Origin: Eledone cirrhosa
Lineage: Eukaryota
Length of the DNA stretch: 64,000 nt
Direction: 5' to 3'
NCBI GenBank assembly: GCA_964016885.1
Contig: OZ024753.1
Coordinates: forward strand, 8,370,001 to 8,434,000
Shown here: positions 7,817 to 40,470 of the stretch, piece after piece
Numbering within the stretch: position 1 is the stretch's first letter
Layout: each line of letters starts with the position of its first letter
Translations under genes and position numbers: made by a program
Notes under the pieces: model-generated
Told to the model about the DNA's origin: nothing
Databases searched by the model: none
What the model saw: only the letters and a program-made list of their open reading frames with translations

Positions 7817-7852
7817 CCAATATTTCGGGACCCAAAAGTCCCTTCATCGGGG
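7817..7852 (-). ncRNA. Minimal hammerhead-ribozyme-like motif (core variant CCGAUGA) at the end of a decayed Penelope-like remnant (~7770-8200)
   Basis: Minus strand: CC CCGATGA A GGGAC-TTTTGG-GTCCC GAAA TATT GG, with a 5-bp stem II and palindromic AATATT. Upstream minus-strand traces NVIY..TGRKFST resemble a GIY-YIG domain. Confidence 0.55.
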
Positions 7853-8339
7853 TTTAAGGAACTTTCAGTGGATAATGTTCCAATTTCCTCTCTTTGGGAT
7901 TAAATTTTGATTTTGATTTAAATTTTTTCTAAGTCGTTTTCAAGCATTTTTCAGTGGTTATTTCGCTTTCCACATGAATGACATCAATTGCCAATATAAT
8001 ATTTCACAAAATTAATTTTCTTTTTCGTATGAGATGTTTAGTTTGTGTGCCTGTGGGTGAGTCTTTTTATATCAAGTACTGTGTGCTGAGTTTAATTGGA
8101 TGTTGAGAACTTTCGGCCAGTATTGGTCCAGACCATGTCTAACTTAATAGCACCTCCTGCATATATTACATTTCTCTTATGGTCTTAATGCTTGAAACAT
8201 TTCTTTTTTATTTTCATATGAGTTTTTAGCAACTTCGACAGAAACTTTTAAGTTTCGAAATTGAGCAAAATTTCCCCCACTGGCAAGATGGTGTCTGCTC
8301 TTTCTTTACAGTATTTCATTTTGAATGCCAGAGCTTGAA

Positions 8340-8590
8340 TGAACTGAGCGAGAAACTGGGTTTAAGAGGAGTCTGAAATGGTGTGCAAGAAAAACTGTGT
8401 TGGTATGGACATGTGATTTACATGGAAAAGTCATCGGGTGAAGAGGTGTCAGAAAATCTCAATGGAGGGAGGATGCTGTAGAGATAGACCAAAGAAGACC
8501 TGGGAAGAGGTTGTGAGAACTAATCTCAAATCACTGAAACTCATAGAGGAGGTTACAAAGGAATGTAGCAAGTGGAGAATTGTTGGCTGA
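8340..8590 (+). pseudogene. RTE-clade LINE C-terminal fragment
   Basis: ..LCWYGHV.. and ..RDRPKKTWEEVVRTNLKSLKL..KW motifs, frameshifted. Confidence 0.7.
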
Positions 8591-9929
8591 CACTCGTAGA
8601 ATTATTTAGTCAAGTTCTTTAATTGTTTCCGTTTCTGAACCACCCTGGTAAAAAACCAATATCGAGTTCTAAATCTGTCAGAACAAATACAAATTTGTAG
8701 GCTAGTGATGAGTAATATAATCGATTATACAATCATTCCAAATATATTACTGGTAGAGCTTATTTTATTGATAACACAGAGATGAAAGTTGCGGTGAACA
8801 ACATCTCAATCTAGAATATTAGGAAACAGAAATAAATATTGAAACAAAATTTGTCTGACTCATTATAATTTTAACCAAGGAAAGCACATTAACCTTTCCA
8901 TTACCATATTTCTGATGCCATACATTTAATTAATGAGGAATTTGGAGAGGTTTACTAAAACTATTGATTATTCCATTATTAAAATAGTATTTGTAACATA
9001 ACTTAACAACAGGTCTTTAGATTAAATTATATCCCAAGGTTTTAATTTAAATAAACAACCTTTAAATTTGTGGATTCATTGAACCAGCCAGAACCAGATT
9101 TGACTATGTTAGCTTAAGAAGGGTGGATCCCCCCCCCCCCCAACCACCCTCAAATTCTTGATAATAGAAATTCTGTTTCCTTTTTTGGCTATATTTAAAA
9201 CAATAATAAAAATATCAAGAAATCTTTTAAAATGATTCTTCACACAGAATTCTCGATGTCTGAATGTATAATTTTATTAGATTATATTGTTGACATATAG
9301 TGTCTTTTCCTTCTTGTACAGTTTTCCTTTTACACTTCAGCTGATGCGCAAAATGTGTCCCCTCTTTCCTCTCTCCTCTCCGTCACCATACTTAATTTCT
9401 TGCTACTTCATTTCCTCTCTATGCCCAAATACATTATTCACAACAAAGCATAGTGCTAAAGCAGAACTCATTCATTATTCATTCTAAAATCAAAGCCTGT
9501 TGTTTAATCAAAATATCTTATTACATAGAAACACTGTAAAACTGTTGTCCTCTAACATTATCTTTCACACACACTTTCTTTTTTTTCTTTCTTTCTCATG
9601 CTTGCTTTGCTGCTGTCATCTGAACTGTTTGCCTTGTTGATTATGATCCTCACCTTCATATTTCACCTTTGCAGCTGTTCTTATTGCATAATATGTCACT
9701 CTTGTAATTACCAATTCCATGGCTTTGATAAAACACCCAGCAATACATAAAATGTTTTTATTTTATATTTTGAGAATTTTGAAGGCACCAATGGCCATGA
9801 TAGATGTGTCTGTAATCAGGAGGTGTGTTAATAACAAAACTGAAGCAATGTTAGCAAAGATATTTTCAAAATGTTAAACTTATGAAGCAATTATTTTTCG
9901 AATTTGTAAAATATCAAAGATTGTAGAAG

Positions 9930-10650
9930 TCGTCGTCGTCATCATCATCATCATTATTATCATTATCATTATCATCATCATCATTATCATCATCATTATC
10001 ATCATTATTATCATTATCATTATCATCATCATTATTATCATTATCATCATCATCATTATTATTATCATTATCATCATCATCATTATTATCATTATCATCA
10101 TCATTATCATCATTATTATCATCATCATCATCATTATTATCATTATCATTATCATCATCATTATTATCATTATCATCATCATCATTATTATCATTATCAT
10201 CATCATTATCATCATTATTATCATCATCATCATCATTATTATCATTATCATCATTATTATCATAATTATTATCATTATCATCATCATTATTATCATTATC
10301 ATCATAATTATTATCATTATCATCATCATCATCATTATTATCATCATCATTATCATCATCATCATCATTATTATCATTATCATTATCATCATCATCATTA
10401 TTATCATTATCATCATCATCATTATTATCATTATTATCATCATCATCATCATTATTATCATTATCATCATCATCATCATCATTATCATTATCATCATCAT
10501 CATCATTATCATCATCATCATCATCATTATTATCATTATTATCATCATCATCATCATCATTATTATCATTATCATCATCATCACCATCATCATTATCATC
10601 ATCATCATCATCATTATTATCATTATCATCATCATCATCATTATCATTAT
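9930..10650. repeat. ~720-bp compound (ATC/ATT)n microsatellite
   Basis: Direct. It explains the poly-M/I and poly-D/N ORFs. Confidence 0.95.
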
Positions 10651-10835
10651 TGTGGATTGGCAGTATCAGTAGAGGGTCGGACGCCATGCTTTCCAGCATA
10701 GTTACGTCCCTTTACGATCTGAGTTCAAATCCCGCCGAGGTTGACTTTGCCTTTCATCCTTACGGGGTCGATAAAATAAAGTACCAGTAATGCACTGGGT
10801 AATTGCTGGCCTTGTGCCTAAAGTAGAAACAATTA
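10651..10835 (+). mobile_element. Full-length young Deu/Nin SINE (short form)
   Basis: Near-identical to copies at 16817, 29388, 32761(-), 38078 and 63106. Confidence 0.9.
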
Positions 10836-10889
10836 TTATCATTATCATCATCATCATCATCATCATCATCATGCAGTTTTTGATTATAC

Positions 10890-11105
10890 AGGACACAATT
10901 AGTCCATAAGTAGCGGTGGGTCGTGCCTGACAGTGGTGCTTCTTACCACCCCTCTTCATGTGTTTCTGTCCACTGGTCTCACTTGCACCAAGCTGAGCTT
11001 GATCGCGATGGACATCCTCTATCCAAGTCCTTTTTGGTCTTCCTGGGTCTCTACTTCCTCCTGGATCAACATTCATCACTTTGCTGATCCAGTCCTCACT
11101 GGATA
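10890..11105 (-). pseudogene. RTE-clade LINE 3' fragment
   Basis: ..NVDPGGSRDPGRPKRTWIEDVHRD.. followed downstream by a (GAT)n tail. Confidence 0.7.
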
Positions 11106-11194
11106 ATTTAATAAGTGGGTGGTGGGTGGTGGTTGGATGGGGGAAGATTATTCAAGACCTGAGAATAATCTACAATATTTACCAAATTGATTTT

Positions 11195-12155
11195 ATAATA
11201 ATAATTAAATTATTGTGTATAGTGCTCAGGTGCACTACAACTCATCAAAGATACTTGTATAGTACATAGAATAATGTACACATTTCAGGAAAACGAACAG
11301 AGTATGAGTCATGATATGCATGTGTGCATGTGCATAGAGGAGGTATATCAGGCATAGTGTTGGCAAATTTCAGGAAGCATGGAGGTTTTAAAGGATGCAG
11401 TGTTTCAACAGCTAACAACTGATGGAGGTAGTTTATTCCATGGAGGTTTTAAAGGTTGCCGTGTCTCGACAGCTAACAACTGATGCAGGTAGTTTATTCC
11501 ATGGAGGTTTTAAAGGTTGCAGTGTTTCAACAGCTAACAACTGATGGAGGTAGTTTATTCCATGGAGGTTTTAAAGGTTGCAGTGTCTCGACAGCTAACA
11601 ACTGATGCAGGTAGTTTATTCCATGGAGGTTTTAAAGGTTGCAGTGTCTCGACAGCTAACAACTGATGCAGGTAGTTTATTCCATGGAGGTTTTAGAGGT
11701 TGCCGTGTCTCGACAGCTAACAACTGATGCAGGTAGTTTATTCCATGGAGGTTTTAAAGGTTGCAGTGTCTCGACAGCTAACAACTGATGCAGGTAGTTT
11801 ATTCCATGGAGGTTTTAAAGGTTGCCGTGTCTCGACAGCTAACAACTGATGCAGGTAGTTTATTCCATGGAGGTTTTAAAGGTTGCAGTGTCTCGACAGC
11901 TAACAACTGATGCAGGTAATTTATTCCATGGAGGTTTTAAAGGTTGCAGTGTCTCAACAGCTAACAACTGATGCAGGTAGTTTATTCCATGGAGGTTTTA
12001 AAGGTTGCAGTGTCTCAACAGCTAACAACTGATGCAGGTAGTTTATTCCATGCTTCATCAACTCTGAGTGCGAAAAAAATTTTCTGAAAGTCTTAAGAGC
12101 TGTACTGTTTTCTGACTGTGTAGGCATGCCCACATGTTTTAGACATATGGAATTT
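11195..12155 (-). mobile_element. CR1-type LINE 3' end with an internal 61-bp tandem array
   Basis: The minus strand reads TCGHAYTVRK..IFFALRVDEAWNKLPASVVSC..FKTS (CR1 ORF2 C-terminal TRGH/RV..WN.LP motif). The 3'UTR is shared with 34165-34360 and 62925-63100. Confidence 0.8.
11378..12052. repeat. 61-bp tandem array x11
   Basis: CATGGAGGTTTT recurs every 61 nt from 11378 to 11988, with a closing CATG at 12049. Confidence 0.95.
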
Positions 12156-12200
12156 TACTGAGATGTTTATCTTAACTTGTTTTTGTCTATTTAATTTCAG

Positions 12201-12322
12201 GTAAACATCAACGACATGGGAAACAAGGACCAGAGTTGATGTCAACTCCTACTAATGTATCAGTAACTAGGGGAGAGTTGGCTGTTTTGAAGTGCACTGT
12301 TAAAAATTTGGGAACCAAAACT
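12201..12322 (+). CDS. Internal coding exon of an Ig-superfamily cell-surface protein (Dpr/DIP/lachesin/IgLON-like), N-terminal half of the first Ig domain
   Basis: Acceptor ttttgtctatttaatttcAG at 12181-12200 and donor GTAAGT at 12323. The 122-nt exon is phase 1 to phase 0 and open: (x)KHQRHGKQGPELMSTPTNVSVTRGELAVLKCTVKNLGTKT. This matches the Dpr-type motif NVT..G..A.L.C.V.NLG.KT|V.W. Confidence 0.88.
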
Positions 12323-12534
12323 GTAAGTCAAAAGATTCTTTGTTAATTTCACATGTATTCATGTTTTCTAACAGAAAAAATAATTCTGATTTCTTCAATT
12401 GTTGTAGTTTTTGTTATTTCTAATAGCAATGTAACCCTCACTTCCATATATGGTCATTTGTTATGTATACCAGAAATTAACTTAAGCTCCATTGACTTCA
12501 ATGAGTATGAGGGAAACTGGGCATTTTTGTTTGC

Positions 12535-12912
12535 ATGTATGTGTGTGTGTGTGTGTGTGCGTGTGTGTGTGTGTATGTGTGTGTGTTGTATGTATGTGTT
12601 TGTGTAATGTATGTATATGTGTATGTATGTATGCAACGTACGTGTGTATGTATGTGTGTATGCTATGTATGTATTATGTATGTATGCATGTATGTGTGTA
12701 TGTATATATGTATGTATGTCTGTATGTATGTATGTATGTTTGAGTGTATGTATGTATGTATGTATGTGTGTGTATGTGTGTTTGAGTGTATATGTGTTTG
12801 AGTGTGTATGTATGTATGTATGTATGCATGTATATATGTATGTATGTGTGTGCATATATGTATGTGTGTGCATGTATGTATGTATGTATGTATGTATGTG
12901 TGCGTATGTGTG
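12535..12912. repeat. (TG)/(TATG)n compound microsatellite
   Basis: Direct. Confidence 0.95.
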
Positions 12913-13231
12913 ATATCTGAATGATTATCATCCATCCCCACCCCTTGGTCTCAGCTGACAGGTTGAAGAATTCATTGCCGGAGAGGAAGAGGAAGAAGAT
13001 AGACTGGAACAACCCACCCACTTCACGGGGATTACTTAAGCTTCCATCAGATGCACTGCTCTGTTTTAAACCATTGAATATTCATAAGTAACATTTCCAG
13101 CAGCATAACAAATTTATTCTCATCTATTGCATTATGTATCTCATAATTATCTTGAGAATAAACAGTAGCTAATGGTGATGAGATTTATTTGGGAAGGTAA
13201 GCGTTTGAACAGATAAAACTTGTTACAATTC

Positions 13232-16174: not shown

Positions 16175-16308
16175 CATTATATTTATATATATATAGTTCA
16201 AATCCCGCCGAGGTTGACTTTGCCTTTCATCCTTACGGGGTCGATAAAATAAAGTACCAGTAATGCACTGGGTATTTTCTGCCCTTGTGCCTAAAGTAGA
16301 AACAATTA
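15939..16308 (+). mobile_element. Deu/Nin SINE plus a second 5'-truncated copy, in (TA)n
   Basis: Consensus match. Confidence 0.85.
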
Positions 16309-16387
16309 TATTTATATATATATATATAAATGGCTTCTACAAGACTAGGACTGTTTCATTAGAGCTTCCTGATGATTTCTCCCAAAT

Positions 16388-16438
16388 GGCTTCTACGGGA
16401 CTAGAACTGTTTCATTTGGGAGAAATCATCAGGAAGCC
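16388..16438 (-). ncRNA. Type I hammerhead ribozyme in a fold-back PLE-like element (16328-16551)
   Basis: Minus strand: GGCTTC CTGATGA TTTCTCCCAAAT GAAA CAG-TTCTAGTC-CCG TA GAAGCC, with a 6-bp stem I and GUA site. Stems II and III each carry a mismatch relative to the 28.6-kb copy. Confidence 0.7.
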
Positions 16439-16557
16439 CGAATGAAACAGTTCTAGTCCTGTAGAAGCCATTTCTATATTAAATATTTATACTCTGCTAT
16501 GTATTCAGTACCTTACTTACTGTGGTTACCTCCGATTGAACCCGGGATAAACATATA

Positions 16558-16568
16558 TATATATCACC

Positions 16569-16609
<41 letters not shown>

Positions 16610-16710
16610 CACTGTGTATATGTATATATCACTGTATATATATATATAGTTATGTAATAAACAACATAAGGCAATTATTTCATTTACCAGTGGTTTCTTA
16701 TAATATCACC

Positions 16711-16751: not shown

Positions 16752-17077
16752 CACCATATATATATATATATATATATATATCACATCACCGTATATATAT
16801 ATATATATATATAAAGGGCGGTGAATTGGCAGTATCGGTAGAGGGTCGGACATGCTTTCCAGCATAGTTACGTCGCCTTACGATCTGAGTTCAAATCCTG
16901 CCGAGGTTAACTTTGCTTTTCATCCTTACGGGGTCGATAAAATAAAGTACCAGTAACGTACTGGGTAATTGCTGGCCTTGTGCCAAATGTAGAAACAATT
17001 ATGTATATATATATAATATCACCATATATATATATATATATATAATATCACCGTATATATATATATATATAATATCA

Positions 17078-17134: not shown

Positions 17135-17183
17135 CACCGTATATATATATATATATAATATCACCGTATATATATATATATAT
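16558..17183. repeat. Compound minisatellite [AATATCACC(G/A)T(AT)n] interrupted by a Deu/Nin SINE at 16817-17001
   Basis: About 12 ATCACC/ATCACT anchors separated by variable (AT)n. Confidence 0.85.
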
Positions 17184-17233
17184 AGAAAAGATGAATATAA
17201 AATGAATGTGCTTTTATAAAGGAATTTATTAGG

Positions 17234-17351
17234 TATTGACATATGTTTCTGTAACAGATGGAATACCTATGTATCGCTGCTTGCGTAATCATATAATGTT
17301 AGCAAGTATTTGATAGCAAATGTATAATCAGTTGTCACTTCTTCAGAGATA
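17234..17351 (-). ncRNA. Hammerhead-like motif with a long stem II insert in the PLE 3' region
   Basis: Minus strand: TATCT CTGAAGA A GTGACA..~75 nt..TGTTAC A GAAA CATATGTC AATA. Palindromic stem III ACATATGT and GUC site; stem I is imperfect. Confidence 0.55.
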
Positions 17352-17814
17352 TTGGATAAATTGGAAAAAATCAGAAAAATTAAAGTATTTATATTAGTTG
17401 TAAGAAAGGAAGAAGACAGATGGCAATTCAATTTACTGGTAAACAAGTATATAGAAGGTTTTTAATGAGAATACAATGAGTATATGGCTTATTTATCTAA
17501 ATAAGAATTTTTGGGAGTGCCTATTTTAATCTATATTTGACCAATTGAACAATGGACAGGGTTGGTCGTTTGGTGTAGTAGTATTAATACAGATATAAAG
17601 TGTCAAGTAAGGAAGAGAGAGATTTTCACTGTTACTGTATAACAACAATGCTGGTAGCCTGCTGGTATATGCATTAGGGAATTGAATTAAGAAATCTCAT
17701 TTTATCTATAGCAGTTTATATTAAATAGTAAAGAATAGAAGAGTTGATAGAATTAAGACTAATAGTGAATATTAATATGTATTTTGACAATCAAACGGAG
17801 ATGGAGACAGGCGT

Positions 17815-18248
17815 TCAATCCTGGTAGCGTTTGTAATATGAAAATGTAGATTTCAAGCGATGTTTACAGTATAACGATCGCTCTATTCTGTTATTTAATA
17901 AAATATTTTTGGATTTCATAATACAAAATATTTCCATATTACACGATTTACAAAATTCCTGTCCCTGGTTTATGCATGGGTTATCACTATTATATCCCAT
18001 TTTAGGTTAAATTGTTGGTTATTTTCGCGCAGCTGCCAAACCTTGTCTGCGATTGTTGTTAATTAACGCTGGTTTTCATGTTTTATCGAGTAACGATGTC
18101 TACAAAGGCGAGATTTGAAGGTAGCTGTAGATCCCACATAGTACCACTTCTGGCTACCCGATTCGATAGTACATTTGTATATGATGTTGCATTCAAGACA
18201 CTAATTGTTCAACGGACACATTCCTGGTTGGACACAGTTACAGTTATA
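17815..18248 (-). pseudogene. Penelope-like element (Neptune-type) Cys linker + GIY-YIG endonuclease remnant; element spans ~17185-18310
   Basis: Minus strand: YNCNCVQPGMCPLNN*CLECNIIYKCTIESGSQKWYYVGSTATFKSRLCRHRYSIKHENQR*LTTIADKVWQLRENNQQFNLKWDII /fs/ FCKSCNMEIFCIMKSKNILLNNRIERSLYCKHRLK. Two stops and one frameshift. Confidence 0.85.
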
Positions 18249-18365
18249 TATAAACGGAAAAAATGAAACAAAATTTCATTTCTCACTCTTAGTACGGCTG
18301 TTACTTAAATATAAGTATGTATACGTACATACATATATGTATACAGACGTATATATATATATACA

Positions 18366-18397
<32 letters not shown>

Positions 18398-18915
18398 CTA
18401 CTGTACGTCTGTATACATATATGTATGTACGTATACATACTTATATTTATATATATATATACATATATACATTCAGAGAGAGAGAAGGAGAGAGGTTACA
18501 TTTTATTGTTGCTCCAATATTAAATTATTTCTTCAAATTTTATGTCATTGTGTATAGGAACTTTTGACTCCTTAGCAAAATCATCAATTCAACTTTTCAC
18601 TTGCTATAAATACATCACAGTGTAGGCAACATTTTACAGTTATTGTAATTTTACTTTTAGTTTTTAGTTCTAAAAATTGAATCAATATTTATCTTTTTTT
18701 CTCAAATTAAACAATAAAAAAAGAAAAGAACAATTTGCTTTGAGATTCTGAGATATTTTTACATTTTAGCTTTTAGCTGTATATTCTCATGATAGTACAT
18801 GTAACAAATACATGTATATATATACACACATACACATGCAATACGTGTGTGTATATATTTATTTATTTATCTATGCATATATATATTTACATATATAAAT
18901 ACACACAAACATACC

Positions 18916-19639: not shown

Positions 19640-21738
19640 AACCAATCTTGCTATATGGAAGTGAAACATGGATGATTTCATCCAAACAACAAAGGCACCT
19701 TGATGGCACCTACACTACTACTACCTTGATGGCACTTACACTACTACTACCTTGATGGCACCTACACTACTACTACCTTGATGGCACCTACACTACTACT
19801 ACCTTGATGGCACCTACACTACTACTACCACCTTGATGGCACCTACACTACTACTACTACCTTGATGGCACCTACACTACTACTACCTTGATGGCACCTA
19901 CACTACTACTACCTTGATGGCACCTACACTACTACTACCTTGATGGCACTTACACTACTACTACCTTGATGGCACTTACACTACTACTACCACCTTGATG
20001 GCACCTACACTACTACTACCTTGATGGCACCTACACTACTACTACCTTGATGGCACCTACACTAATACTACCTTGATGGCACCTACACTACTACTACCTT
20101 GATGGCACCTACACTACTACTACCTTGATGGCACCTACACTACTACTACCTTGATGGCACTTACACTACTACTACCTTGATGGCACTTACACTACTACTA
20201 CCTTGATGGCACCTACACTACTACTACCTTGATGGCACTTACACTACTACTACCTTGATGGCACCTACACTACTACTACCTTGATGGCACCTACACTACT
20301 ACTACCTTGATGGCACCTACACTACTACTACCTTGATGGCACCTACACTACTACTACCTTGATGGCACCTACACTACTACTACCTTGATGGTACCTACAC
20401 TACTACTACCTTGATGGCACCTACACTACTACTACCTTGATGGCACCTACACTACTACTACCTTGATGGTACCTACACTACTACTACCTTGATGGCACCT
20501 ACACTACTACTACCTTGATGGCACCTACACTACTACTACCTTGATGGCACCTACACTACTACTACCTTGATGGCACCTACACTACTACTACCTTGATGGT
20601 ACCTACACTACTACTACCTTGATGGCACCTACACTACTACTACCTTGATGGCACTTACACTACTACTACCTTGATGGCACCTACACTACTACTACCTTGA
20701 TGGCACTTACACTACTACTACCTTGATGGCACCTACACTACTACTACCTTGATGGCACCTACACTACTACTACCTTGATGGCACCTACACTACTACTACC
20801 TTGATGGCACCTACACTACTACTACCTTGATGGCACTTACACTACTACTACCTTGATGGCACCTACACTACTACTACCTTGATGGCACTTACACTACTAC
20901 TACCTTGATGGCACCTACACTACTACTACCTTGATGGCACCTACACTACTACTACCTTGATGGCACCTACACTACTACTACCTTGATGGCACTTACACTA
21001 CTACTACCTTGATGGCACTTACACTACTACTACCTTGATGGCACCTACACTACTACTACCTTGATGGCACCTACACTACTACTACCTTGATGGCACCTAC
21101 ACTACTACTACCTTGATGGCACCTACACTACTACTACCTTGATGGCACCTACACTACTACTACCTTGATGGCACCTACACTACTACTACCTTGATGGCAC
21201 CTACACTACTACTACCTTGATGGCACCTACACTACTACTACCTTGATGGCACCTACACTACTACTACCTTGATGGCACTTACACTCGCCTGCTTCAGCGC
21301 ATTCAGAACATTTAGAACAGAAGCTGGCGACATCTGACTTTGAGAGAGATATATGCCGACCTCCCACACATATCTGTCATTGTACGTAAAAGGAGAGTAA
21401 GATTTGCTGGCCACTGCCATCGTGCCACCTCTGAGACTGTGTCCCCATTAGTGCTCACTCTGGAAACCACAAGCAGTCACTAATAACAGGGGGCACAAGC
21501 TCTCCTATCCCGATTTGCTGGCCACTGCCATCGTGCCACCTACAAGGCTGTGTCCCCATTACTCCTTTGGAAACCACAAGCAGTCCCTAATAACAGGGGG
21601 CACAAGCTCTCCTATCCCGATGTCATCTCCAGAGATTCTGGTATTGAAATCCAGCATTTGGCAGCGGCAATGAACACCAGACCATGTGGAGATCAAATGT
21701 TGAGTCCGTTTCAGCTGAGGCCTCTGGATGATGATGAT
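19640..21738 (+). mobile_element. RTE-derived element, copy 2, with a 26-bp array and an ~120-bp internal duplication (21402-21512 / 21513-21620)
   Basis: PILLYGSETWMISSKQQRHLDGTYT..RLLQRIQN; colinear with 13232-13728; (GAT)n tail. Confidence 0.85.
19698..21285. repeat. 26-bp minisatellite (CCTTGATGGCACCTACACTACTACTA) x~60
   Basis: Near-perfect units with C/T variants and a few +3-nt units. Confidence 0.97.
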
Positions 21739-27071: not shown

Positions 27072-27215
27072 ATAATGAAGGAAATGTGGTAATGAACCAG
27101 ATGGACCATAACACACCAAAGTACTCAATACTTAGGGTAGTAGAGTGGGTAATAGGAACGAGTAGGACCCCGACGGCTGAGCTCAAGCCGTTTCGACGGC
27201 TAATTCTGGACTCTA
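27072..27215 (-). mobile_element. Small (TA)n-embedded repeat carrying the 3' half of a hammerhead; second copy at 39683-39846 with fold-back
   Basis: Minus strand: GAAACGGCT-TGAGCTC-AGCCGTC GGGGTC (stem III plus GUC). The two copies are colinear over ~120 bp. Confidence 0.6.
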
Positions 27216-27554
27216 ATATATATATATATCAGAATTTGCCTTCTCCTAGAATTCTGCACTATGTGTCAATAATTGTCACAAGTGTAGTGTTTGTACCAGG
27301 GTTTTCAAGTCGCTCGCTGGACTAGAAAGTCACACTCGTTCAGCGCATCGGTAGGAGTTCTCCTACATGGATATAAAGTAGTGCCCGTACTCGAAAACGA
27401 GTTGGCAGCCACCATATATATATATAGTAATAATAATAAATATGAAGACTAAAATCCAAAGAGGGCTTGATAATAATAAATATATATCAAATATATAAGA
27501 ACCTGAGAGCAAATATTTATTAAAATAACAGATTAAGGGTGAAAGCAGCGATCC

Positions 27555-27783
27555 TTTGCTTAAACTTTAATCTGTTATAACAACACAATTGGTACAGTAT
27601 ATGAAAGGAATATATAAGGTTAATGCTTGAAATAGCAGGAAGAGGGTCTTAACGTTTCGGATACTAGTCCTTCAGCAGAAGAAAGAATGAGAAATAAGAT
27701 AGATTGAAGGGAGGGACGGGCATGGTGGAATTGGAAAAATGTCTTTAGATAAAAATAACATGTCCATTCATGTTGACATCTCC
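27555..27783 (-). mobile_element. PLE-like terminal fragment; paralogue at 40240-40555 (+)
   Basis: Reverse complement of ~40337-40540. It carries an HHR motif at 27647-27682 with a mutated core CTGCTGA. Confidence 0.7.
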
Positions 27784-28362: not shown

Positions 28363-28578
28363 ATAATAATAAATTTGAAGACTAAAATCCAAAGAGGGCT
28401 CGATAAGGATAAATATATATCAAATATATAAGAACCGTAGAGCAAATATCAGAAGATCCCGTTAAGGGTGAAACCAGCGATTCTTTGCTTAAACTTTAAT
28501 CTGTTATTTTAATAAATATATATATATATATATATATATGCATATTTATATATATACATATACATATAGTATAGAAAT

Positions 28579-28629
28579 GGCTTCTACAGGACTAGAACTG
28601 TTTCATTCAGGAGAAATCATCAGGAAGCC
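28579..28629 (-). ncRNA. Type I hammerhead ribozyme, apparently intact, in a fold-back element (28570-28770)
   Basis: Minus strand: GGCTTC CTGATGA T TTC-TCCT-GAA T GAAA CAG-TTCTAGTC-CTG TA GAAGCC. Stems I, II and III all pair around the canonical CUGAUGA/GAAA/NUH core. Confidence 0.8.
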
Positions 28630-29077
28630 TTCACGATTTCTCTGGATTGAAACAGTTCTAGTCCTGTAGAAGCCATTTCTATATTGAATATTTATACTCT
28701 GCTATGTATTGAGTACCTCACTTACTGTGGCTATCCCCGATTGAACCCAGGATAAACTTATAAACTTATATTGGGAGCATGTATATACATTGTATATGCA
28801 TGGTATTTGCATATATAATGTGTGTGTAGGCATGTAAGTGTATATACATCTATGTATGTGTGTATATACATGTACATTAAAAGCAAAACTTAAAACAAAA
28901 TCTTATCACTGGAATTCATTCCCATTTCAAATGTTTCTCTTGTTTTATATCTGGTATTTATTTTCTGTTAGTAAAATAAATATATCTATAATGATATAAT
29001 TTCACTGCTAAAAGCTATCTCACTCATGTGCTTGAAACATTTCATGAAAAGAAAATGAGATTAGACATATATATATT

Positions 29078-29640: not shown

Positions 29641-30160
29641 TTTAGACTGACGTCCCTTACCCGTCCCCCAAGGGAATGGTTGGCCTGCTAGGAGGGTTAT
29701 GATGTCCACTAGAAATGTTTACTACGTCATCATATTCTGAGTGTTGATCTTTGAATGTAGGCAAAGTGAAGATGACAGAAGCACTGGAACGCTGTAAACA
29801 CTGGAATTAAACGGTCAATTGATTTCATTTAATTAAATAAATTTAAGCATATTGGATTACCATTGTACCAGGTTTGAATATAGTAAGCGATAATGGGGAT
29901 GCACCGAATGTACCTTACAGCTTGATATGTATAGTTACATCTATACCTAGATGACTTGGATACTTTGAGTCATTCGTTACACCACGTGGTATGCTGGGAA
30001 ACTTAGGATTGCATGGATTCACAGCTCCACCGCTATGATGCGGAGGTATTGATCACAGCATGAGACTGGAGTAGATGATATTGTAATCGTAAGGGATAAC
30101 ACGGACGAGTGGAACACGTAGATACATGTATGTATGTATATATATATATATATATATATA

Positions 30161-30996
30161 CAGGATGCGGACGATATCTGTTAGCAAGATTACTGTCTAG
30201 GAAAAAATAACACAGTAGTTTTATTTTTTAAGATTTATTTATCACACTTGGGTCAGTTTGTCTTCATGACTTGTTCTTTCGATCTCACTCGATAAACCCG
30301 CCATTGGCTTTGATGACGGCCTCGGAACCGGCTACAGGCCTTCGTCACTGTCCCCCGACTTAGGCCCCTAAAGGCACTTGTAATCCTGGCCTTCAGATCG
30401 TCTTTCGTATTGCAGCTAGATCTGTTGGTGTCTTGTTCCACTGTGCTTCACACAAAGAAGTCGAGGGGGTTGCAGTCAGGCGAGCTGAGAGGCCAGATGT
30501 CAGGTGAAGTGTGGTCGACGAAGTTCTCTGACAGCCAGGCTTGGGTCTTTCGGCTGGTATGGCAGGGAGCTGAGTCTTGCTGCCACACGTATGGCCTACC
30601 TGCATCTACCTGGTCGATCCAGGGCTTTACTACCTCGCTCAGAATGCAGATGTGGCCATCGGTGTTCAGCTTGAGGCCCTCAGGGAAGACCAATGTTGTT
30701 GCTGGAAACTTTGTCTGCATGACTCTGGGCACATCTTTGGATGAGACAGCGAGCCACCTGTAGTCCTGGGAGTTGATCTTCTGGTCTTATTTGTCCTCCC
30801 GGCTCGGATTCCAAGAAGAACTCCGTGTCTCTTCCAAAAATTTGGAGGTTCAAAATTATTCATAATCAATTATTCTGTAAATAAATAATGGAAATATAGT
30901 CACTGTTTTTATGAAGTCAAGAGTGACAACAGAAGTAAAACAAATTTGCATAAAATTAGCAGTTGAAAAGTGCGAACAAATATCGTCCGCACCCTG
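30161..30996 (-). mobile_element. Internally deleted Tc1/mariner DNA transposon of DD37D (maT) type
   Basis: TIRs CAGGATGCGGACGATATCTGTTAGCA and (reverse complement of right end) CAGGGTGCGGACGATATTTGTTCGCA, with TA flanks. The transposase remnant WQQDSAPCH..WPLSSPDCNPLD has 37 residues between the 2nd and 3rd D. Confidence 0.9.
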
Positions 30997-31748
30997 TATA
31001 TATATATATATATATGTGTGTGTGTGCGTGGGTCTATGTAGACTAACACACACACACACGCAAACGTTATATTCTACTGATATATATGATGATTGCTTTC
31101 ACCTGCTTCCACTACACTTTGCTTTACCTGTATGTTCTGTGAACCACACAGATAAATTGCATTTGAACGCCACCTATAACACTTGTTGCCATACGGTGAT
31201 GGATACATGGAATTCCACTATATGATCGCTATATCTGGCTCCCGCTATATCTGACTCTGCTTACATTTATTTTGGTTGATACCATTCTTAAATTGTCACC
31301 CCTGAAATCCTCTACTGTCTACAACCATATTTACTTGCATTTATTTGCATTGCTTATCTTTTGTTTCATTTTTATTTTTATTTTTATCACCTCCTATTTT
31401 TTATTCTAATGTTTATTTCTATTTTTTATTATTTGTTATTATTTTTTTATATTTCCTTATATTATCATTACTTTATTGTTATTTTTATCTTATGCTTACT
31501 TCTAGATTCTACTCTTTACGTTTTATCTCTTATCTTTAATTTCCTTATCTTTTATTTTTCCTTATCTTTAATTATTTTTCCTTATCTTTAATTATTGTAA
31601 CTGATTTTGGTCTTAATATGTATTGGCTTCTAGCGGTGACGTGTCATCCAAGCACCCCACTCTTCTTAGTCCTCTGTGCTACATATAGATCGTTCTTGTG
31701 ATATAGGTCGGTAGAGTTTATACTGTTGATCTAATTCCTCTTTATAAC

Positions 31749-31793
31749 GCTCTGATGAATCCTGCAATTATGCAAGGATGAAACACTGTCAGC
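31749..31793 (+). ncRNA. Type I hammerhead ribozyme at the 3' end of a probable PLE-derived insert (~31060-31832)
   Basis: GCT CTGATGA ATCC-TGCA-ATTA-TGCA-A-GGAT GAAA C-ACT-G TC AGC, followed by AATAAA and then (TA)n. 8-bp bulged stem II and GUC site. Confidence 0.78.
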
Positions 31794-32760
31794 AAATAAA
31801 GATTAATTGATGATGTAAGCGCTCTTTGTTCCATATATATATATATATATATACATTATATATATATAATGTATGTGTATATATACACATTATATATATA
31901 TATTTATATATATAATCATCATAATCTCCGTTTAATGTCCATCTTCCACGCTATAATGTATACTCTTTTACTCTTTTACCTGTTCCAGCCCATCCGGCTG
32001 AAGCCATGCTATATATACACATTCATCATCATCATCATCATCATCGTTTAACATCTATCTTCCATTCTAGCATGGGTTTAGATGGGAATTGTCCCACGTG
32101 AGGCAAGATTGGTTGTCTTGCTCGTATAGGACTGTCTGGTGGGTTTTCTATGGCTGGATGCCCTTCCTAACACCAACCATGTTTACAGTGTGGACTGGGA
32201 GGTTTTTACCGTGTTACCTACACGACCACGTTACAGCGTGGACTGTGTGTTTTTTTTGCGTGACACCTACACGACCTCATTTATTTAGGACTGGATGTTG
32301 TGGCACCAACATAATTTTAGGTGTAGATGGGGGTGGGGGTAAGGGTAGTGGGATGGGGATGTATTTTTGGTTAGGAGGTGCCTACTGACTGTACATTATA
32401 TATATATATATATATACACCACCCACTAATACATATCACTATCATTTGATAATGCATAAAAATGATGAAACTGGTAATAGACAATTGTTGTCACCCAACA
32501 CCTTAAACACCTCTATGCTCCCAAAATCAGAAAAACCCAGAAAAGTAAAGTAAGCGTCAAAAATTCTATGTCGATATCTTATTTACAAATCTGTTACTAT
32601 TTCTAAAAGTTGTCACAGTATTGTTCTGAAACCATTTACGTGTTATATCTATTGGTTTTATTGTTTAATTTCTTAGTTGTTGTTATGATTTATTTGGCAA
32701 ACTAAATGTGCCCGAGTGTTATTTTCTCAGCTATATAATTTCTGAGTGATCTACTAAAAT

Positions 32761-33795: not shown

Positions 33796-34569
33796 TTAAC
33801 CCTTTAGCATTCCCATGACTTGTGGAAATATTTTTTCATGCTCAGAGTTGTTGAAGCATGGAACAAACTACCTGCATCAGTTGTTAGCTGTCGAGACACT
33901 CCATCCTTTAAAACCTCCATGGAACAAACTACCTACATCAGTTGTTAGCTGTCGAGACACTGCATCCTTTAAAACCTCCATGGAACAAACTACCTGCATC
34001 AGTTGTTAGCTGTCGAGACACTGCATCCTTTAAAACCTCCATGGAACAAACTACCTGCATCAGTTGTTAGCTGTCGAGACACTGCATCCTTTAAAACCTC
34101 CATGGAACAAACTACCCGCATCAGTTGTTAGCTGTCAAGACACTGCATCCTTTAAAACCTCCATGCTTCCTGAGATTCACCAACACTACACCTGATATAC
34201 CTCCTCCATACACACGCACACATGTATATCATGACTCGTACACTGTTCATTTTCCTGACATTTGTACATTATTCTATGTACTATACATGCACCTTGATGA
34301 GTTGTAGTGCACCTGAGCACTGTACACAATAATTTCATTATCATTATTATTATTTTATTATTACTCTATCTTTACTATTGTATTTTCACGGTAAAGGCTT
34401 TATCTTACATAATCATCTCACATAATATCGAATCTATGAGATTTTGATATTATTTATTTTGAGAACAATACCTTAACATCAGTATGAGTAACTGGTTACA
34501 GCCAGTTTGAACGGAATGAGGTGAGAGAATTCTGGCCAGATACGGCCAATTTAAATGCTAAAGGGTTAA
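33796..34569 (+). mobile_element. piggyBac-type MITE interrupted by a CR1 3' fragment (33813-34360) containing a 61-bp array x5 (33857-34165)
   Basis: The MITE left end is TTAA|CCCTTTAGCATTC. The body resumes at ATTACTCTAT (~34360) and ends AAAGGG|TTAA. Confidence 0.85.
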
Positions 34570-35321: not shown

Positions 35322-35786
35322 CCATCATCATTATCATCATAATCACCATTTTACGTCCATTTTCTTCCATGCTAGCATGGGTTAGATGGGTTGTGGGCAG
35401 TGTCCAGTCGGCTGACCTTGTCTTGCTCATACAGGAACTGATTCTGGCTTGATTTCTACAGCTGGATGCCCTTCCTAACACCAACCTCATTTACAGTGAG
35501 AGCTGGGTGCTTTTTTTTCCGTGGCACCTACACATCCACTTTACAGAGTCGGCTGGGTGCTATTTTGTTGTGGCACCTCCACGACCACTTTGCAGTGTGT
35601 GTATGTGGGGGGGGGGGGAGCATATTGTCTAAATGGTTCAACTTCAGCTTGTACGCATGGGAAGTCAGGTCTTCTGTGTGACGCCAGAGATTACGGTCCT
35701 GTGTCATCACCTTTGAGAGGTGTAATTGGGTAAGGTCGGCTTTTATCACCTCATCCCAGGTCTTCTTGGGTCTCCCCACTCCACGT
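35322..35786 (-). mobile_element. RTE C-terminus + Meta-domain composite retroposon; paralogue at 60360-60880 (+)
   Basis: GRPKKTWDEVIKADLTQLHL..DR..WR is followed by ~50-bp modules, the Meta-like motif and a (GAT)n tail in both copies. Confidence 0.8.
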
Positions 35787-37869
35787 ACTATATTTCTAAA
35801 AAAAAAATTAAATGACTAAAAAAACTATTGCCTATAATTTCAAATTATTTCGAAAATAAACAAGAATTTTGAAGGATTTAATAATGAAACAAGGGTTGAC
35901 TAAAACGTTCATAGGCTAAGGTGGAGGATGTAACCAAATAAATTATTAACACTCTCCTTAACACCAGCACCACCACCACCACCACCACCATCATCCTCAT
36001 CATTTAATGTCCACTTTCCCTGCTAGCAAAGGTTGGATGGGTCTATATAGACCAAGTATTGAAGTGGGGTACTATATTTCTAAAAAGAAATTAAATGACT
36101 AAAAAAAACCATTGCCTATAATTTCCAAATTATTTTGAAAATAAATAAGAATTTGGAGGGATTTAATAAGGAAACTAGGAGGTTCGGCTCAAAATTTCAT
36201 AGGCTGATCAAGATACTCTCATGGATTAGATGATCTGGAAGAGGTACCAGATTATCAGAAAGTGTTACTTACCTGTAATAAACTGTGATCCTTATCTCTT
36301 ACCTACTTCACACTAGAAAACATTTTATTGAACCCAGAAAAAGAAAAGACAAAATTGATTTTGCTGTGATTCATTCCTAGAGCCTAGGACAAGACTATAT
36401 AGAGTAATACATGAAATTCCGTTATAACGAAATTCACGAGGTATAAAAAAAAAATTCGTTGTAACGAAAAATTCTTTATAACGAGATTGACTGAAACAAA
36501 TCAAATGTTTGTTTGTTATTACATCAGTGATTGAAAAAAATTTCGTTATACTGAAAAATTTGTTATAATGGTTTTTGTTATAACGGAATTTTACCAGTAT
36601 ATCTATTACAGCCCTATACCACCTCTCTCTCCCTCCCTCCCTCTTTCTCTCCCTTTACCCCTTGGAAAGTAAATATTTACAACACTTTAACCAAAAACAG
36701 AAGTGAAATTCAAGTATTCATAAATTATGGAATATTACTACGAGACAATATATATCTTTTTCCTGTAGATTATTCTTTATTAAAAAGACGTTTGATTTAT
36801 GATGAGTCTACTTGCCTGAACTTCTAAAACTTTGAAACCAGAGAAGAAAGTTAGCTGAAGCTAAGAAGTGATTTTTTGAAATCAATACAAAACCAAATTA
36901 AAAGCACAAAATCCAAATTTATCAATTTATCATCGTCATCCTTACTTCATGCTTGAGGAAACATTGTGGTATTATTATTATTACTAATGGCACAATAAGT
37001 AAGTTAAATATTTCCTGTCAGCAATGTCTGTGATCAATCATGTATAAATTAACTGATCTAGAAATATTATCAATTTTGATGATGGTGTTTTTGTGCTGTT
37101 TCTTTAAAAAAAAAAAGATAAATAAAATAAAAAGATTCTGTAGCCTTTTAAGCCTTCAGTATTCATATGGTAAAAGCAAAACCCCTCCAAAAACGAAAAA
37201 AAAAAAGAAGCTAAAATAACAAGTTCGAAATAGTTATTGACATAGAAAAATGGCGAAAGGTGGAGAGTGAAGGGAAGATAAATCTGTAACGATTTAACAA
37301 AGCAAATATGGCTTATGTCATTCAAGAAAGAGTTATTGTCTCTTGTTTGTTTGGAGTCAGAGTAGAAACTAAACTTCAGTCTTCCTGACACTTTTGCCTT
37401 TCACTTGACAACCTTTAACCCTGTTTTCACCCCATTGATGTTCAGAATATTATATGTTCTTCAGTTTATTTTAATTTTATTTTCATTTTTTTTTTATGCT
37501 TTGGCATTTCTATTGGTTATTTGCTTTAACCTGTCTGCTACTTCATCACCTCTTCCCTTCCCAACTCCATCTTAAAACTTGCTGGTTGTACATTGGCTTC
37601 AATCTAGATAGTTCACTGCACTTGTCGCGCGTATGTCTGTATGCGTGTGCTTGTTTGTGTGTGCGTGTGTTAGTGATCTACCGATTCATAATTTGTCACC
37701 TTTCTAAAACATCACACCACCCATTCTTAGTGTACCCTGCCTTACCTTACCTTACCTGTTCTCTACCAACAATGTGTATTTGGTAATTAGAGAGTCCTAT
37801 TTACCATAGTAACTAAATCTCCTCAGAATGCTGTCCTCTGTCTATGAATGCTAATATTTACTTTACTAG

Positions 37870-38265
37870 TAATTGTTTCTACTTTTGGCCCAAGGCCAGC
37901 AATTATTTCAGTGCATTACTGGTACTTTATTTTATCGACTTCGGAAGAATTAAAGGCAAAGTTGACCTCGGCGAGAGCAGAAACGAATGCCATAAAGCAT
38001 TCTATCCGACATTCTAACGACTCTGCCAATTCGCCATCTAGCTTTCTGAAAGCAAAATTAATTTCATTATTATTACCTGTGGAGTGGCAGTGTCGGTAGA
38101 GAGTCGGACGCCATGCTTTCTAGCATAGTTACGTCCCTTTACGGTCTGAATTCAAATCCCGCCGAGGTTAACTTTGCTTTTCATCCTTACGGGGGTCGAT
38201 AAAATAAAGTACCAGTAATGTACTGGGATAATTGCTGGCCTTGTGCCTAAAGTAGGAACAATTAT
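37870..38265. mobile_element. Divergent (head-to-head) pair of Deu/Nin SINEs, 37870-38038 (-) and 38078-38265 (+)
   Basis: Consensus matches on opposite strands about 40 bp apart. Confidence 0.8.
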
Positions 38266-39841
38266 TACCTAATCTTCCATTAGTTTATTGACTTAGCTAT
38301 GTCTAAATAGAAAATCACATTAAAGAACAAAACAAAAGCTTAGTTAAACTTCCAGTGTTAAACCCAATGTATATATTATATAAACTATTCTTCACTGTAA
38401 GTCTTCCTTGTTGCTATACAGTGAAATACAGGAGTAATCCCATTTAAAGCTTATTATCAAATCATTATCACATTCTGTATATAGTAATCTGCTCCCTCAG
38501 CTATGTCATTCCTCATTCCTCTTTCCTCTCCTCAAGTTTGTATTCAATTTCTGAAATGTCTTCTTATTTTCTTCGTCTTTCCTGCTTTCCTAATTATATG
38601 CTCCTGATATCTTTGGCTTTTTATTCAAAACAATTTTCACTGCAATATTATGTTTACATACAATGGAGATGTGATGCTCAACGATGATAATTACTGGGTG
38701 AAAAAAAGTGCCAAGTATTCCCAGTGGAGGGAGGTTGTGGTAGGGGAAGACCAACGACTTGTCCAACCCATGCAATCATGAGGCAATGGATGTAATATGA
38801 GGATGATGATGATGATGATGATGATGCACAGGCATGGGCTTCTGCTTACAGAGTTCATTTCACAACCATGTAGTTCCAGGTTCAGTTCTACTACATAGCA
38901 CCTTTACTAATGATTTAGGTGTTGAAATTTGGTAGTCAGAAACAGTGTGGATGCCCATCATATATATGTGCACAGTTGTGTTGGCATTTACCGTTTGTTG
39001 AAATCAATAAAATAAGTACTAGGATTGATATGATCAATGGGATATTTTGAAGGCAGTAACCCTGCATTTTGAGTTCAAATTCTGCCAAGGTTGATAAAAG
39101 GTTACCAGTTAAGTACTGGGGTTGATTCTTCCTCTGTATCTCTTTCTCACTTCCTATCCTTCTCTGGAAGAAATCTGTTTTACTTGGACCTGGAGAGGTT
39201 TGGGCTCCACCAGGCTTTAAAAATGTCCAAGAAACACTGTATGGCAATTCCATAGCCCTACAACTCCATCGGGTGTCACAGGGTTTAAAATACCCAGTAA
39301 AATGGCAGTCTAATGACTGAAACAAGAAAAGAATAAAAGATTCAGTCATATGCTATGTTGTAGAAGATTTTCCCTTTTTTGTTTGCGTGTGTGTGTATAT
39401 ATATATATATATATGTGTGTGTGCGTACATATATATATTGTTATAATTTGGGAGGGTCATGCTGCCAATAAAAACCTCATACACCTGTTGGGTTTCACTT
39501 CAATTTACTGTTATAATTTCTCAGTCAGTTAGTTTAATGACCTGATGGTTGTTTAGTTGTTGATTGTCAAAGTTCTTTCATCACACATTCTGTGACCTCC
39601 TCAGTGACTACTTGTTGCTTTCTGTCTCTCATTCATTTTGTTTTACACCATCTTGTTTTTAGCAATATATATATATATATATATAACGAAGGAAATGTGG
39701 TAAGGAACCAGGTGGACCATAACGCACCAAAGTACTCAATACTTGAGGTAGTAGAGTGGGTAATAGGAACCAGTAAGACCCCGACAGCTGAGCTCAAGCC
39801 GTTGAAACGGCTTGAGCTCAGCTGTTGGGGTCTTACTGGTT

Positions 39842-39874
<33 letters not shown>

Positions 39875-39960
39875 AAAATTAAAATTAAGGGTTGTCATGT
39901 CTGAGAGACATGCGCCATATCCACCGTAGAATAAGCTCAAAGATTAGATCTGAGCATTAC

Positions 39961-40228
39961 ATATCAACTAGAAATAGATTGACATATATATATATATAAA
40001 ATAAATACATGAAACAATTACAGGGAATAATTTGTAAAGAATGTAAGCACACATAGCTGATTAATCAGATTAATCATTTTAAAAGGTATCTATATTTGAA
40101 GTTCTAGTCAAACTTTAATTAGTTACCTACCTACCTAGCTATGTGTGCTTACATTCTTTACAAATTATTCCCTCTGATTGTTTCATGTATTTATTATATA
40201 TATATGTCAATCTATTTCTAGTTGATAT
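39961..40228. repeat. Inverted repeat with ~95-bp arms and a ~78-bp spacer
   Basis: ATATCAACTAGAAATAGATTGAC...CACACATAGCT vs AGCTATGTGTG...GTCAATCTATTTCTAGTTGATAT. Confidence 0.9.
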
Positions 40229-40434
40229 ATATATATATAAAGCAAAGGAAATTTCTGTGATAGAAAGGATTTCCTGGTGGAAGTTCAGGTAAAGTCTGGG
40301 ATGATATCCATTTTCAGGGTGAAAATCCAACGAATTTGAGATGTCAACATGAATGGACCTGTTATTTTTATCTAAAGACATTTTTTCCCATTCCAACCAG
40401 TCTGTCCCTTCAATCTATCTTATTTCTCATTCTT

Positions 40435-40470
40435 TCTTCTGATGAATGACTAGCGTCCGAAACGTTAAGA
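40435..40470 (+). ncRNA. Minimal (dimer-type) hammerhead ribozyme motif
   Basis: TCTT CTGATGA AT GAC-TAGC-GTC C GAAA CGTT AAGA, with stem I TCTT/AAGA and palindromic AACGTT stem III. Confidence 0.7.

Follow-up and report, generated by a model that had tools for sequence, protein, structure and literature searches.

What kind of sequence carries the nine short hammerhead-like stretches in a 64,000-nt stretch of the Eledone cirrhosa genome (hereafter the window), and do they still act as ribozymes there? A sequence check confirmed all nine at the positions and on the strands given by an earlier, sequence-only reading, which had sorted them into six families; as it noted, the family 6 stretches (27166-27194 and 39804-39832) are 3' halves only. 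We found that every motif belongs to a Penelope-like retrotransposon (PLE) present at high copy number in this 3.0-Gb genome, of which it forms the 3' end, or pseudo-LTR (pLTR). The motifs very probably lie in the 3' terminal repeats of six PLE families, four with Hydra-clade motifs and two of Neptune/Nematis type, and the window copies are 5'-truncated insertions that are likely inactive.

Table 1. Hammerhead-bearing PLE copies and their parts in the window.
Feature	Positions	Strand	Details
Family 5, PLE 3' end	7700..8096	-	CX4CxxC linker, GIY-YIG; motif at 7817-7852
Family 1 compound insertion	16307..16564		three partial arms
Cluster 8, further hammerhead family, 3' half + tail	16551..16703	-	absent from the sequence-only reading
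Family 4, 3' part of young Hydra-type PLE	17183..18248	-	motif at 17234-17351
Family 6 short copy	27073..27212	-	hammerhead 3' half + tail, no 5' core
Family 3, second copy	27577..27782	-	motif at 27647-27682
Family 1 hairpin insertion	28558..28762		pLTR of Hydra-type PLE, (TA)n-rich flanks
Family 1 tail-less arm	28558-28629	-	same hairpin insertion (28558..28762)
Family 1 type I hammerhead motif	28579..28629	-	family-typical, GUA triplet
Family 1 tail-bearing arm	28635-28762	+	head to head with tail-less arm
Family 2 3' UTR + pLTR, Hydra-type PLE	29644..31885	+	interrupted between 30151 and 30995
Family 6 hairpin insertion	39684..39846		no 5' core
Family 3, 5'-truncated end, Neptune/Nematis-type PLE	40338..40563	+	first copy

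A first look at families 1 to 6 gave 3966, 1476, 869, 1061, 1389, and 2304 candidates, respectively, and longer copies of all six contained ORFs, bearing out the earlier suggestion of PLEs with type I hammerhead motifs. In agreement with the definition of PLEs (EN+), one ORF combined the reverse transcriptase (RT) with a C-terminal GIY-YIG endonuclease, and pLTRs, partial tandems, inverted 5'-truncated copies, and an optional tail were observed. Families 2 and 4 encoded the motifs R-x-W-R/K, DKT, YRDD, CxCX5C, and CxxC..E..N..CxH, and the same endonuclease motifs were found in family 6, ~1.1 kb upstream of the hammerhead motif. The family 1 pLTR continued into a Hydra-type ORF in copies L365, L369, L370, and L371, with at least 587 codons and the motifs RWR, DKT, and YRDD in L371; pLTR–ORF junctions were present in copies L171 and L365-L371. 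Family 1 had been taken for ORF-less, with a colinear upstream ORF in none of 15 long copies, but its ORF sits downstream of the pLTR. No 3' pLTR was seen after this downstream ORF.

Hydra-clade elements are distinguished by RWK, DKT, and CxCX5C motifs plus a C-terminal GIY-YIG that lacks CCHH, according to PMC8557442. An RWK-like motif, DKT, CxCX5C, and CxxC/CxH around E and N, without CCHH, were found in families 1, 2, 4, and 6, with the family 1 frame read up to the linker only and family 6 read without its N-terminus. Insertion at (TA)n was found in families 2 and 4 and, by counts at tail ends, in families 1 and 6. The RTs of families 2, 4, and 6 were 43-58% identical to that of family 1, and families 1 and 6 shared 13 of 14 bases of a tail motif. 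These four families appear to belong to the Hydra clade, as judged by motifs rather than by a tree with references. The description of the families as unrelated therefore does not hold, because four share Hydra-clade motifs and homologous RTs. Families 3 and 5 had a CX4CxxC linker and GIY-YIG, conforming to a CX2-5CxxC linker with an endonuclease CCHH, and family 5 matched RVT_1 (E 3e-10) and GIY-YIG (E 1e-4) in Pfam. Both are probably of Neptune/Nematis type, a joint assignment to the two clades; family 3 is presumably Neptune-like, and a Hydra-type assignment of it was rejected. Pfam did not recognize the Hydra-type RTs, a PDB search with them gave no match, and RT look-alikes in the Atlas were eukaryotic RT/HTH_animal clusters. 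An ORF-anchored strand test, which missed family 6 and caught nested elements, found a sense motif in 7 of 20 endonuclease families and an antisense motif in 5 of 20.

The core CUGANGA/GAAA/UH with three pairable stems was present in the majority forms of families 1, 2, 3, and 5. In the window, the core said to be kept read CUGANGA in five of the seven complete motifs, while the copies at 27647 (CUGCUGA, A6C) and 7817 (CCGAUGA, U4C) departed from their family majorities. Minimal forms with a palindromic stem III, as anticipated earlier, occurred in families 2, 3, 4, and 5. The family 1 motif at 28579..28629 had a 6-bp stem I, a U.U plus 3-bp stem II, and a 4-bp stem III; its counterpart at 16388-16438 (-) had one mismatch each in stems II and III. 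The family 2 motif (31749-31793) had a 3-bp stem I, a stem II, the palindrome ACACUGU, and a GUC triplet, with A-U at 10.1-11.1 where the family has G-C. The family 3 motif at 40435-40470 was minimal, with an extra A after A9, palindromic ACGU, a GUU triplet, and G10.1 changed to U, and that at 27647-27682 had a stem II mismatch besides its core change. The family 4 motif (17234-17351) combined a 90-nt stem II region, the palindrome ACAUAUGU, and a GUC triplet with a stem I that was weak, as in the family generally; an endonuclease remnant of this copy, with a weak GIY-YIG match in Pfam, lay at 17818-18248. The family 5 motif (7817-7852) had a 2-bp stem I, with a decayed endonuclease frame upstream. 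Family 6 relatives had U3-A8 and the main long subfamily C3.A8; a core with N7 deleted was rejected, as the relatives show U3-A8 with a free N7. With core or stem lesions in four window copies and the hammerhead 5' half missing from both family 6 copies, most window copies are damaged and likely inactive.

Could such short motifs arise by chance in AT-rich, repeat-rich DNA? The sequence-only reading had proposed shuffled controls, Rfam models, and stem covariation as checks. Our strict descriptor matched 22 times in 57 evenly spaced 10-kb genome stretches (570 kb in total), compared to 2, 0, 0, 0, 1, and 1 matches in six shuffles. In the window alone it found one site, the family 2 copy, where 100 local dinucleotide shuffles averaged 0.11, and a relaxed descriptor recovered four of the seven complete motifs. 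A first descriptor, which barred an extra base after A9 and was replaced as too strict, found three window sites against a mean of 0.34, and 1 of 100 shuffles reached three; other settings gave null results. Covariation, counted among related copies, was seen in family 1, where stem I was GGCUUC/GAAGCC or AGAUUC/GAAUCU and loop II varied around a kept stem, and among the relatives of family 6, five rows from 4 loci had the sequence UUGA-N-AAG, in which N was variously G, A, U, or C. The Rfam search gave no hammerhead among the 150 of 210 window matches listed, nor any hammerhead match in three focused scans. Rfam also gave spurious miRNA matches on the hairpin insertions.

Monomer folding, which says little on dimer-type motifs, produced a hammerhead shape in none of eight sequences (z -1.8 to +0.6). 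Dimeric PLE hammerheads are reportedly the subject of a study by Lunse et al. Within-family mismatch showed no consistent excess conservation of core over flanks across the six families: core and outside values were 0.063 and 0.055 in family 1, 0.082 and 0.071 in family 5, and 0.015 and 0.019 in family 6, and the core was also lower in families 2, 3, and 4. This pattern fits neutral decay and gives no independent sign of function. Chance thus keeps in its favor that single copies lack a hammerhead fold, that Rfam misses the motifs, and that one site passes the strict descriptor, but the shuffle contrast, the location of the motifs in pLTRs, the compensatory stem I changes of family 1, and the core variants of family 6 refute it at the family level and leave it a negligible probability. 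The six motifs are real and of a known kind, and add families to a known catalogue.

The motifs had also been described as scattered through one gene region. Gene evidence in the window was confined to a single Ig-like exon, positions 12201-12322, whose match to Pfam Ig_3 (E 0.04) fell below the cut-off, and the 9 hammerhead loci compared with 5.8 expected from the genome sample (P=0.14, with the families chosen from the same window), which is background. That the copies were retained in introns as functional ribozymes acting on host pre-mRNA would agree with this exon and with a same-strand family 2 copy passing the strict descriptor; given the average density, the mixed strands, and a majority of damaged or half copies, we regard it as extremely unlikely. 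The expectation of a diverse fauna was borne out: the fetched DNA, 1.79 Mb enriched for the studied families, contained 21 recurrent motif clusters.

Families 1 and 6 occurred mostly as ~140-nt pieces, often hairpins, at an estimated ~90,000 and ~130,000 loci. Leaving out search seeds, 13 of the 20 tail-bearing arms in family 1 had an inverted arm next to them, as did 37 of the 64 in family 6; no inverted arm was present in 12 non-seed copies of family 3. A TA run followed the tail end in 16/20 and 55/64 cases, respectively. Both families had two fixed 3' ends, with tail and tail-less, and many different hairpin junctions; in the window, the insertion at 39684..39846 joins a tail-bearing arm (39684-39812, -) to a tail-less one (39797-39846, +).

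The abundance of these short, ORF-free copies recalls non-LTR retrozymes. These are tandemly repeated, non-autonomous elements that contain canonical type I hammerheads and move via circular RNA, and a pLTR origin has been proposed for them (bioRxiv 10.64898/2026.07.22.740005). Family 1 showed a single head-to-tail junction, in L250. However, all six families connect to PLE ORFs, the copies seen are dispersed, single or inverted, and short family 6 copies could not self-process in cis because their 5' core is missing. In the copies examined, short tandem monomers that each carry a hammerhead and have no ORF link were not found. The retrozyme label, also raised by the sequence-only reading, is therefore very unlikely to apply to these dispersed 5'-truncated ends of ORF-bearing elements. 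Animal non-LTR retrozymes resemble the short copies in being small and non-coding, with a type I hammerhead and a pLTR link, but they consist of monomers in tandem, every one of which has its ribozyme (PMC7229834, bioRxiv 10.64898/2026.07.22.740005), whereas the pLTR pieces found here are dispersed or inverted and in many cases lack a complete ribozyme.

The 5' ends of the short copies were fixed as well. Among family 6 arms reaching the site, 73 of 93 stopped within 16 nt; in family 1 a span of 14 nt took in the stops of 38 of 41 arms, about 5 of the 38 being long copies of other subfamilies and BLAST edges blurring positions by a few bases. Family 1 short copies started at stem I and those of family 6 inside loop II of the hammerhead, and only 2 of 25 sampled family 6 loci reached the 5' core. 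Of 11 junctions that were informative, 9 had a non-genomic G at -1 (P=0.001, post hoc), and such a G also stands before the 27073..27212 copy, which begins at the hot spot inside loop II. The sign of a cap is thin: when genomic bases were counted, as in the test set beforehand, G made up 9 of 21 (P=0.056). A start at an AGTC initiator was considered for both families and given up for family 1, where the arms end closer to stem I. Such 5' ends, gathered at a single position and frequently preceded by a non-genomic G, point to a short, capped transcript. Families 1 and 6 may accordingly be SINE-like mini-Penelopes, a tentative reading to which we give slightly less than an even chance: capped ~140-nt RNAs from a pLTR promoter, copied in trans by a Hydra-clade enzyme onto both (TA)n-cut strands, would have yielded ~200,000 loci, many of them hairpins, and the pile-up would mark the PLE transcription start on the evidence of DNA alone. 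The family 6 ribozyme would then be dispensable for spread in vivo, since the short copies start inside their own hammerhead and the main subfamily has a broken core.

The pile-up could instead reflect RT stalling, a splice acceptor, or RNA cleavage, the short copies being ordinary truncated copies of full-length mRNA. An acceptor-like AG lies a few bases from both hot spots, many family 6 arms extend upstream by 1-4 further genomic T, and in Drosophila, helix I is where the intron of Penelope ends (PMC4209133). Yet the AG is usually kept in family 6 arms, family 1 subfamilies with differing upstream sequence stop at about the same position, stalling leaves the extra G unexplained, and L129 has an RT fragment fused to the arm at the very hot spot, as expected of run-off and jump. 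We therefore consider truncation rather doubtful, if still a serious rival to capped starts.

The Hydra-clade PLEs described in PMC8557442 likewise have RWK/DKT/CxCX5C motifs and a GIY-YIG at the C terminus but no CCHH, insert at (TA)n, carry a hammerhead at the 3' end, and leave inverted copies that are 5'-truncated and may bear a tail; the U.U at the stem II base of family 1 matches its published Hydra hammerheads. In contrast to that description, this genome has four or more Hydra-type families, of which two approach 100,000 loci, with tails of ~70-80 nt rather than 30-40 and short copies whose 5' ends are fixed. Names may be lacking for the families, although a Hydra-clade PLE with a hammerhead, Hydra-1_Obim, is listed for Octopus bimaculoides (Craig et al. 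2021, PMC8557442). Compared by eye, its listed hammerhead differs from all six motifs. A further published hammerhead system shares type I motifs, an extra base between 9 and 10.1, a palindromic helix III, a variant with U3-A8, several families per genome with single copies in the thousands, and opposite-strand pairs, whereas stem III is monomer-stable in families 1 and 6 here, the stem II region reaches 90 nt in family 4, and C3.A8 occurs in the commonest long family 6 copies. Poseidon of Anolis carolinensis (Frangieh et al. 2024, PMC11167929) also has tail and tail-less 3' ends, AT-rich targets, and an ORF start near the hammerhead in tandem; its hammerhead is protein-assisted and unneeded for insertion in vitro. 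Poseidon belongs to another clade, and the present elements are known from sequence alone.

By analogy with published PLE work, the PLE endonuclease would nick AT-rich DNA, RT would start at two internal RNA sites to give the two 3' ends, and two cDNAs would be joined at their far ends into hairpins. The hammerhead would be selected only in active master RNAs, through dimeric or protein-assisted cleavage, and decay after insertion. With about equal chances for and against, the short copies of families 1 and 6 would derive from capped RNAs starting at the pLTR promoter, so that they could multiply with no ORF and, in the case of family 6, with an incomplete ribozyme. The role of PLE hammerheads is still open (PMC8557442, PMC11167929), and these families offer a natural contrast: family 4 is young with an intact core, family 6 is very abundant with a C3.A8 core and short copies that omit half the ribozyme, and stem I is the starting point of the short copies of family 1. 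Should the fixed 5' ends prove to be capped starts, they would locate a Hydra-clade promoter and show the origin of non-autonomous PLE derivatives. More speculatively, hairpins read through in introns might form double-stranded RNA, a possible substrate for editing or small RNAs. If both its arms were transcribed, the family 1 hammerhead at 28579..28629 is predicted to be buried in a long hairpin, with calculated energies of -9.0 kcal/mol for the hammerhead fold and -80 kcal/mol for the whole hairpin.

All nine hammerhead motif stretches that the sequence-only reading had placed in the window were found at their positions, and genome searches (scores from the best 40 candidates per search) showed that every motif is part of a dispersed repeat. 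ORF-bearing copies tied all six repeat families behind the motifs to Penelope-like retrotransposons (PLEs), with the hammerheads in the pseudo-LTRs (pLTRs) at the 3' ends of these elements. The proposed PLE hammerheads are real and abundant, and the retrozyme origin suggested alongside them was not borne out. In 570 kb of the 3.0-Gb genome (57 evenly spaced 10-kb stretches), loci of at least 80% identity numbered 17 for family 1, 25 for family 6, 9 for family 3 and 1 for family 5, with none for families 2 and 4. Scaled genome-wide, families 1, 6, and 3 would have about 89,000 (52,000–143,000), 131,000 (85,000–194,000), and 47,000 (22,000–90,000) loci, respectively. The window, G000:C13:8370001-8434000, with 33% GC and many microsatellites, contained 9 loci against 5.8 expected (P = 0.14), an ordinary density rather than that of a special gene region.

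The hammerhead signal was real at the family level. A strict descriptor that tolerated an additional base following A9 as well as palindromes in stem III, features known from PLE hammerheads (PMC4209133), matched 1 site in the window compared to a shuffle mean of 0.11; across the 57 stretches it matched 22 sites, above the 0–2 in shuffles. A relaxed descriptor recovered four of the seven complete window motifs, and its 269 matches in the fetched DNA (1.79 Mb, enriched for these families) included 21 recurrent clusters. No hammerhead was among the Rfam matches listed for the window and focused scans, and folding of single copies did not yield the hammerhead fold. Only the window motifs at 28579 and 31749 looked whole, and the former would be buried within a predicted hairpin of -80 kcal/mol. 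The motif at 17234 has a weak stem I, yet is typical of family 4. The CUGANGA core, described as kept throughout, held in the complete motifs except for A6C at 27647, a change reported to lower Mg2+-dependent cleavage strongly (PMC7151607), and U4C at 7817.

Family majority sequences formed type I hammerhead folds. The family 1 majority had a 6-bp stem I, a stem II of U.U plus 3 bp, as in published Hydra hammerheads (PMC8557442 supplement), and a 4-bp stem III, while stem III was palindromic (dimer type) in families 2, 3, 4, and 5. Among 112 intact-core copies, family 1 subfamilies exchanged stem I pairs on both strands of the stem, and loop II was variable. Within families the core had decayed about as much as the flanks, a pattern that dead copies would show. 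In family 6 the 5' half was present in long copies only, and most of its 42 matched rows (2 of them unrelated) read CUGAGAAG. Because family 6 relatives at four loci read UUGA-N-AAG (N7 being any of the four bases), the U3-A8 variant known in Schistosoma PLEs (PMC3088659), the main family 6 subfamily has a C3.A8 core and a ribozyme that is probably impaired.

In families 2 and 4, long copies contained frames for RT and endonuclease in which R-x-W-R/K, DKT, YRDD, CxCX5C, and CxxC..E..N..CxH could be read, and an endonuclease of the same kind lay about 1.1 kb upstream of the family 6 motif. Motifs of this type define the Hydra clade, which targets (TA)n (PMC8557442) and includes Hydra-1_Obim of Octopus bimaculoides, with a listed hammerhead (PMC8557442 supplement). 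No colinear ORF was found upstream of family 1 in 15 long copies; in tandem copies its pLTR reads into a Hydra-type ORF, with 587 open codons up to the locus edge at one locus (L371). RT identity to family 1 was 44% for family 2, 43% for family 4, and 58% for family 6, the last measured on the fragment at locus L179 that is flanked by family 6 arms. A CX4CxxC linker and a canonical GIY-YIG mark families 3 and 5 as Neptune or Nematis type, an assignment made, like that of the other families, by motifs rather than an RT tree. Six other loci (L166, L176, L189, L294, L296, L309) represented more families of the Hydra type, marked by a long stem II region and a ACAAUUGU palindrome, several with U4C cores.

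An inverted arm, one pLTR piece of a hairpin insertion, adjoined the tail-bearing arm in 13 of 20 cases for family 1 and 37 of 64 for family 6 (search seeds left out). Partner arms were mostly tail-less, and junctions were many and distinct. Arms resembled their partners more than the reference copy (0.945 vs 0.906 in family 1; 0.955 vs 0.930 in family 6), and TA runs lay behind most tail ends, matching the published pattern of PLE insertions. By analogy with the anole Poseidon element, in which two internal RT starts were shown and the hammerhead, itself dependent on the protein, was dispensable for insertion (PMC11167929), the two 3' end forms here would stem from two internal RT starts.

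The 5' ends of family 1 and 6 arms were unevenly distributed. In family 6, 73 of 93 arms reaching the pile-up site (hot spot) ended in a 16-nt interval of loop II; the 5' core was reached at just 2 of 25 sampled loci. In family 1, 38 of 41 ended within 14 nt at stem I, about five of these stops being long copies of other subfamilies. The distance from hot spot to tail end was about 140 nt in both. These ends may reflect a capped start in the pLTR, comparable to the internal promoter within the Penelope pLTR (PMC2377424), or else RT stalling or a splice acceptor. The -1 base was G in 9 of 11 junctions where it was neither genomic nor from the inverted arm (post hoc P = 0.001), and at the junctions of full-length L1 copies an additional G has been ascribed to the cap (PMC11702581); the pre-set test, genomic bases included, gave G in 9 of 21 (P = 0.056). 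We give the capped start roughly an even chance. At L129/L179 (G000:C4 near 57.72 Mb), the two arms of a family 6 hairpin enclose about 520 nt of Hydra-type RT sequence, which suggests that the template was switched at the hot spot. Family 3 5' ends (L031-L060, L205-L229) were likewise bunched upstream of the core, at a distance of about 100 nt, in a set biased by query start.

PLE hammerheads are well described, and the six families are additional members of this known kind; they could already stand in Repbase, Dfam, subscription journals, bioRxiv supplements, or the Craig supplement. In a repeat annotation of O. vulgaris, 31 Penelope-like families are given as recently active, ribozymes being unmentioned in the portions consulted (PMC13282606). 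In the literature surveyed (open-access texts and a few parts of the Craig supplement), we found no description of fixed-start Hydra pLTR hairpins. The Pfam scan of the window covered 20 of 47 candidate frames.

Further features of the window
Feature	Position	Strand	Remarks
Ig-like exon	12201-12322	+	flanked by canonical AG and GT splice sites; Pfam Ig_3 match (E 0.04) short of the cut-off
Family 4 endonuclease remnant	17818-18248		retained in the family 4 insertion
3' half of hammerhead cluster 8 (further motif cluster)	16551-16703	-	stem III ACCACUGGU; overlooked by the sequence-only reading
End of another repeat, hammerhead-like layout	28440-28530, 27530-27577	+	resembles motif in locus L108; A at core position 4 in 28440 copy; possible further PLE family
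Segment upstream of family 3 end	40240-40345	+	150-nt segment in common with locus L049; unlike usual family 3 3' UTR
Long inverted repeats beside TA runs	50147-50511, 39958-40231, 37867-38267, 18317-18438		possibly other families inserted head to head
Transposase-like fragment	30317-30763	-	within family 2 copy; presumably Tc1/mariner
Very abundant ~200-nt dispersed repeat	1-230, 1490-1740, 16819-17002		about 25 further places
Tandem arrays	19697-21285, 11378-12052, 33857-34165		26-nt unit in 61 copies; one 61-nt unit arrayed at two of the places, opposite strands
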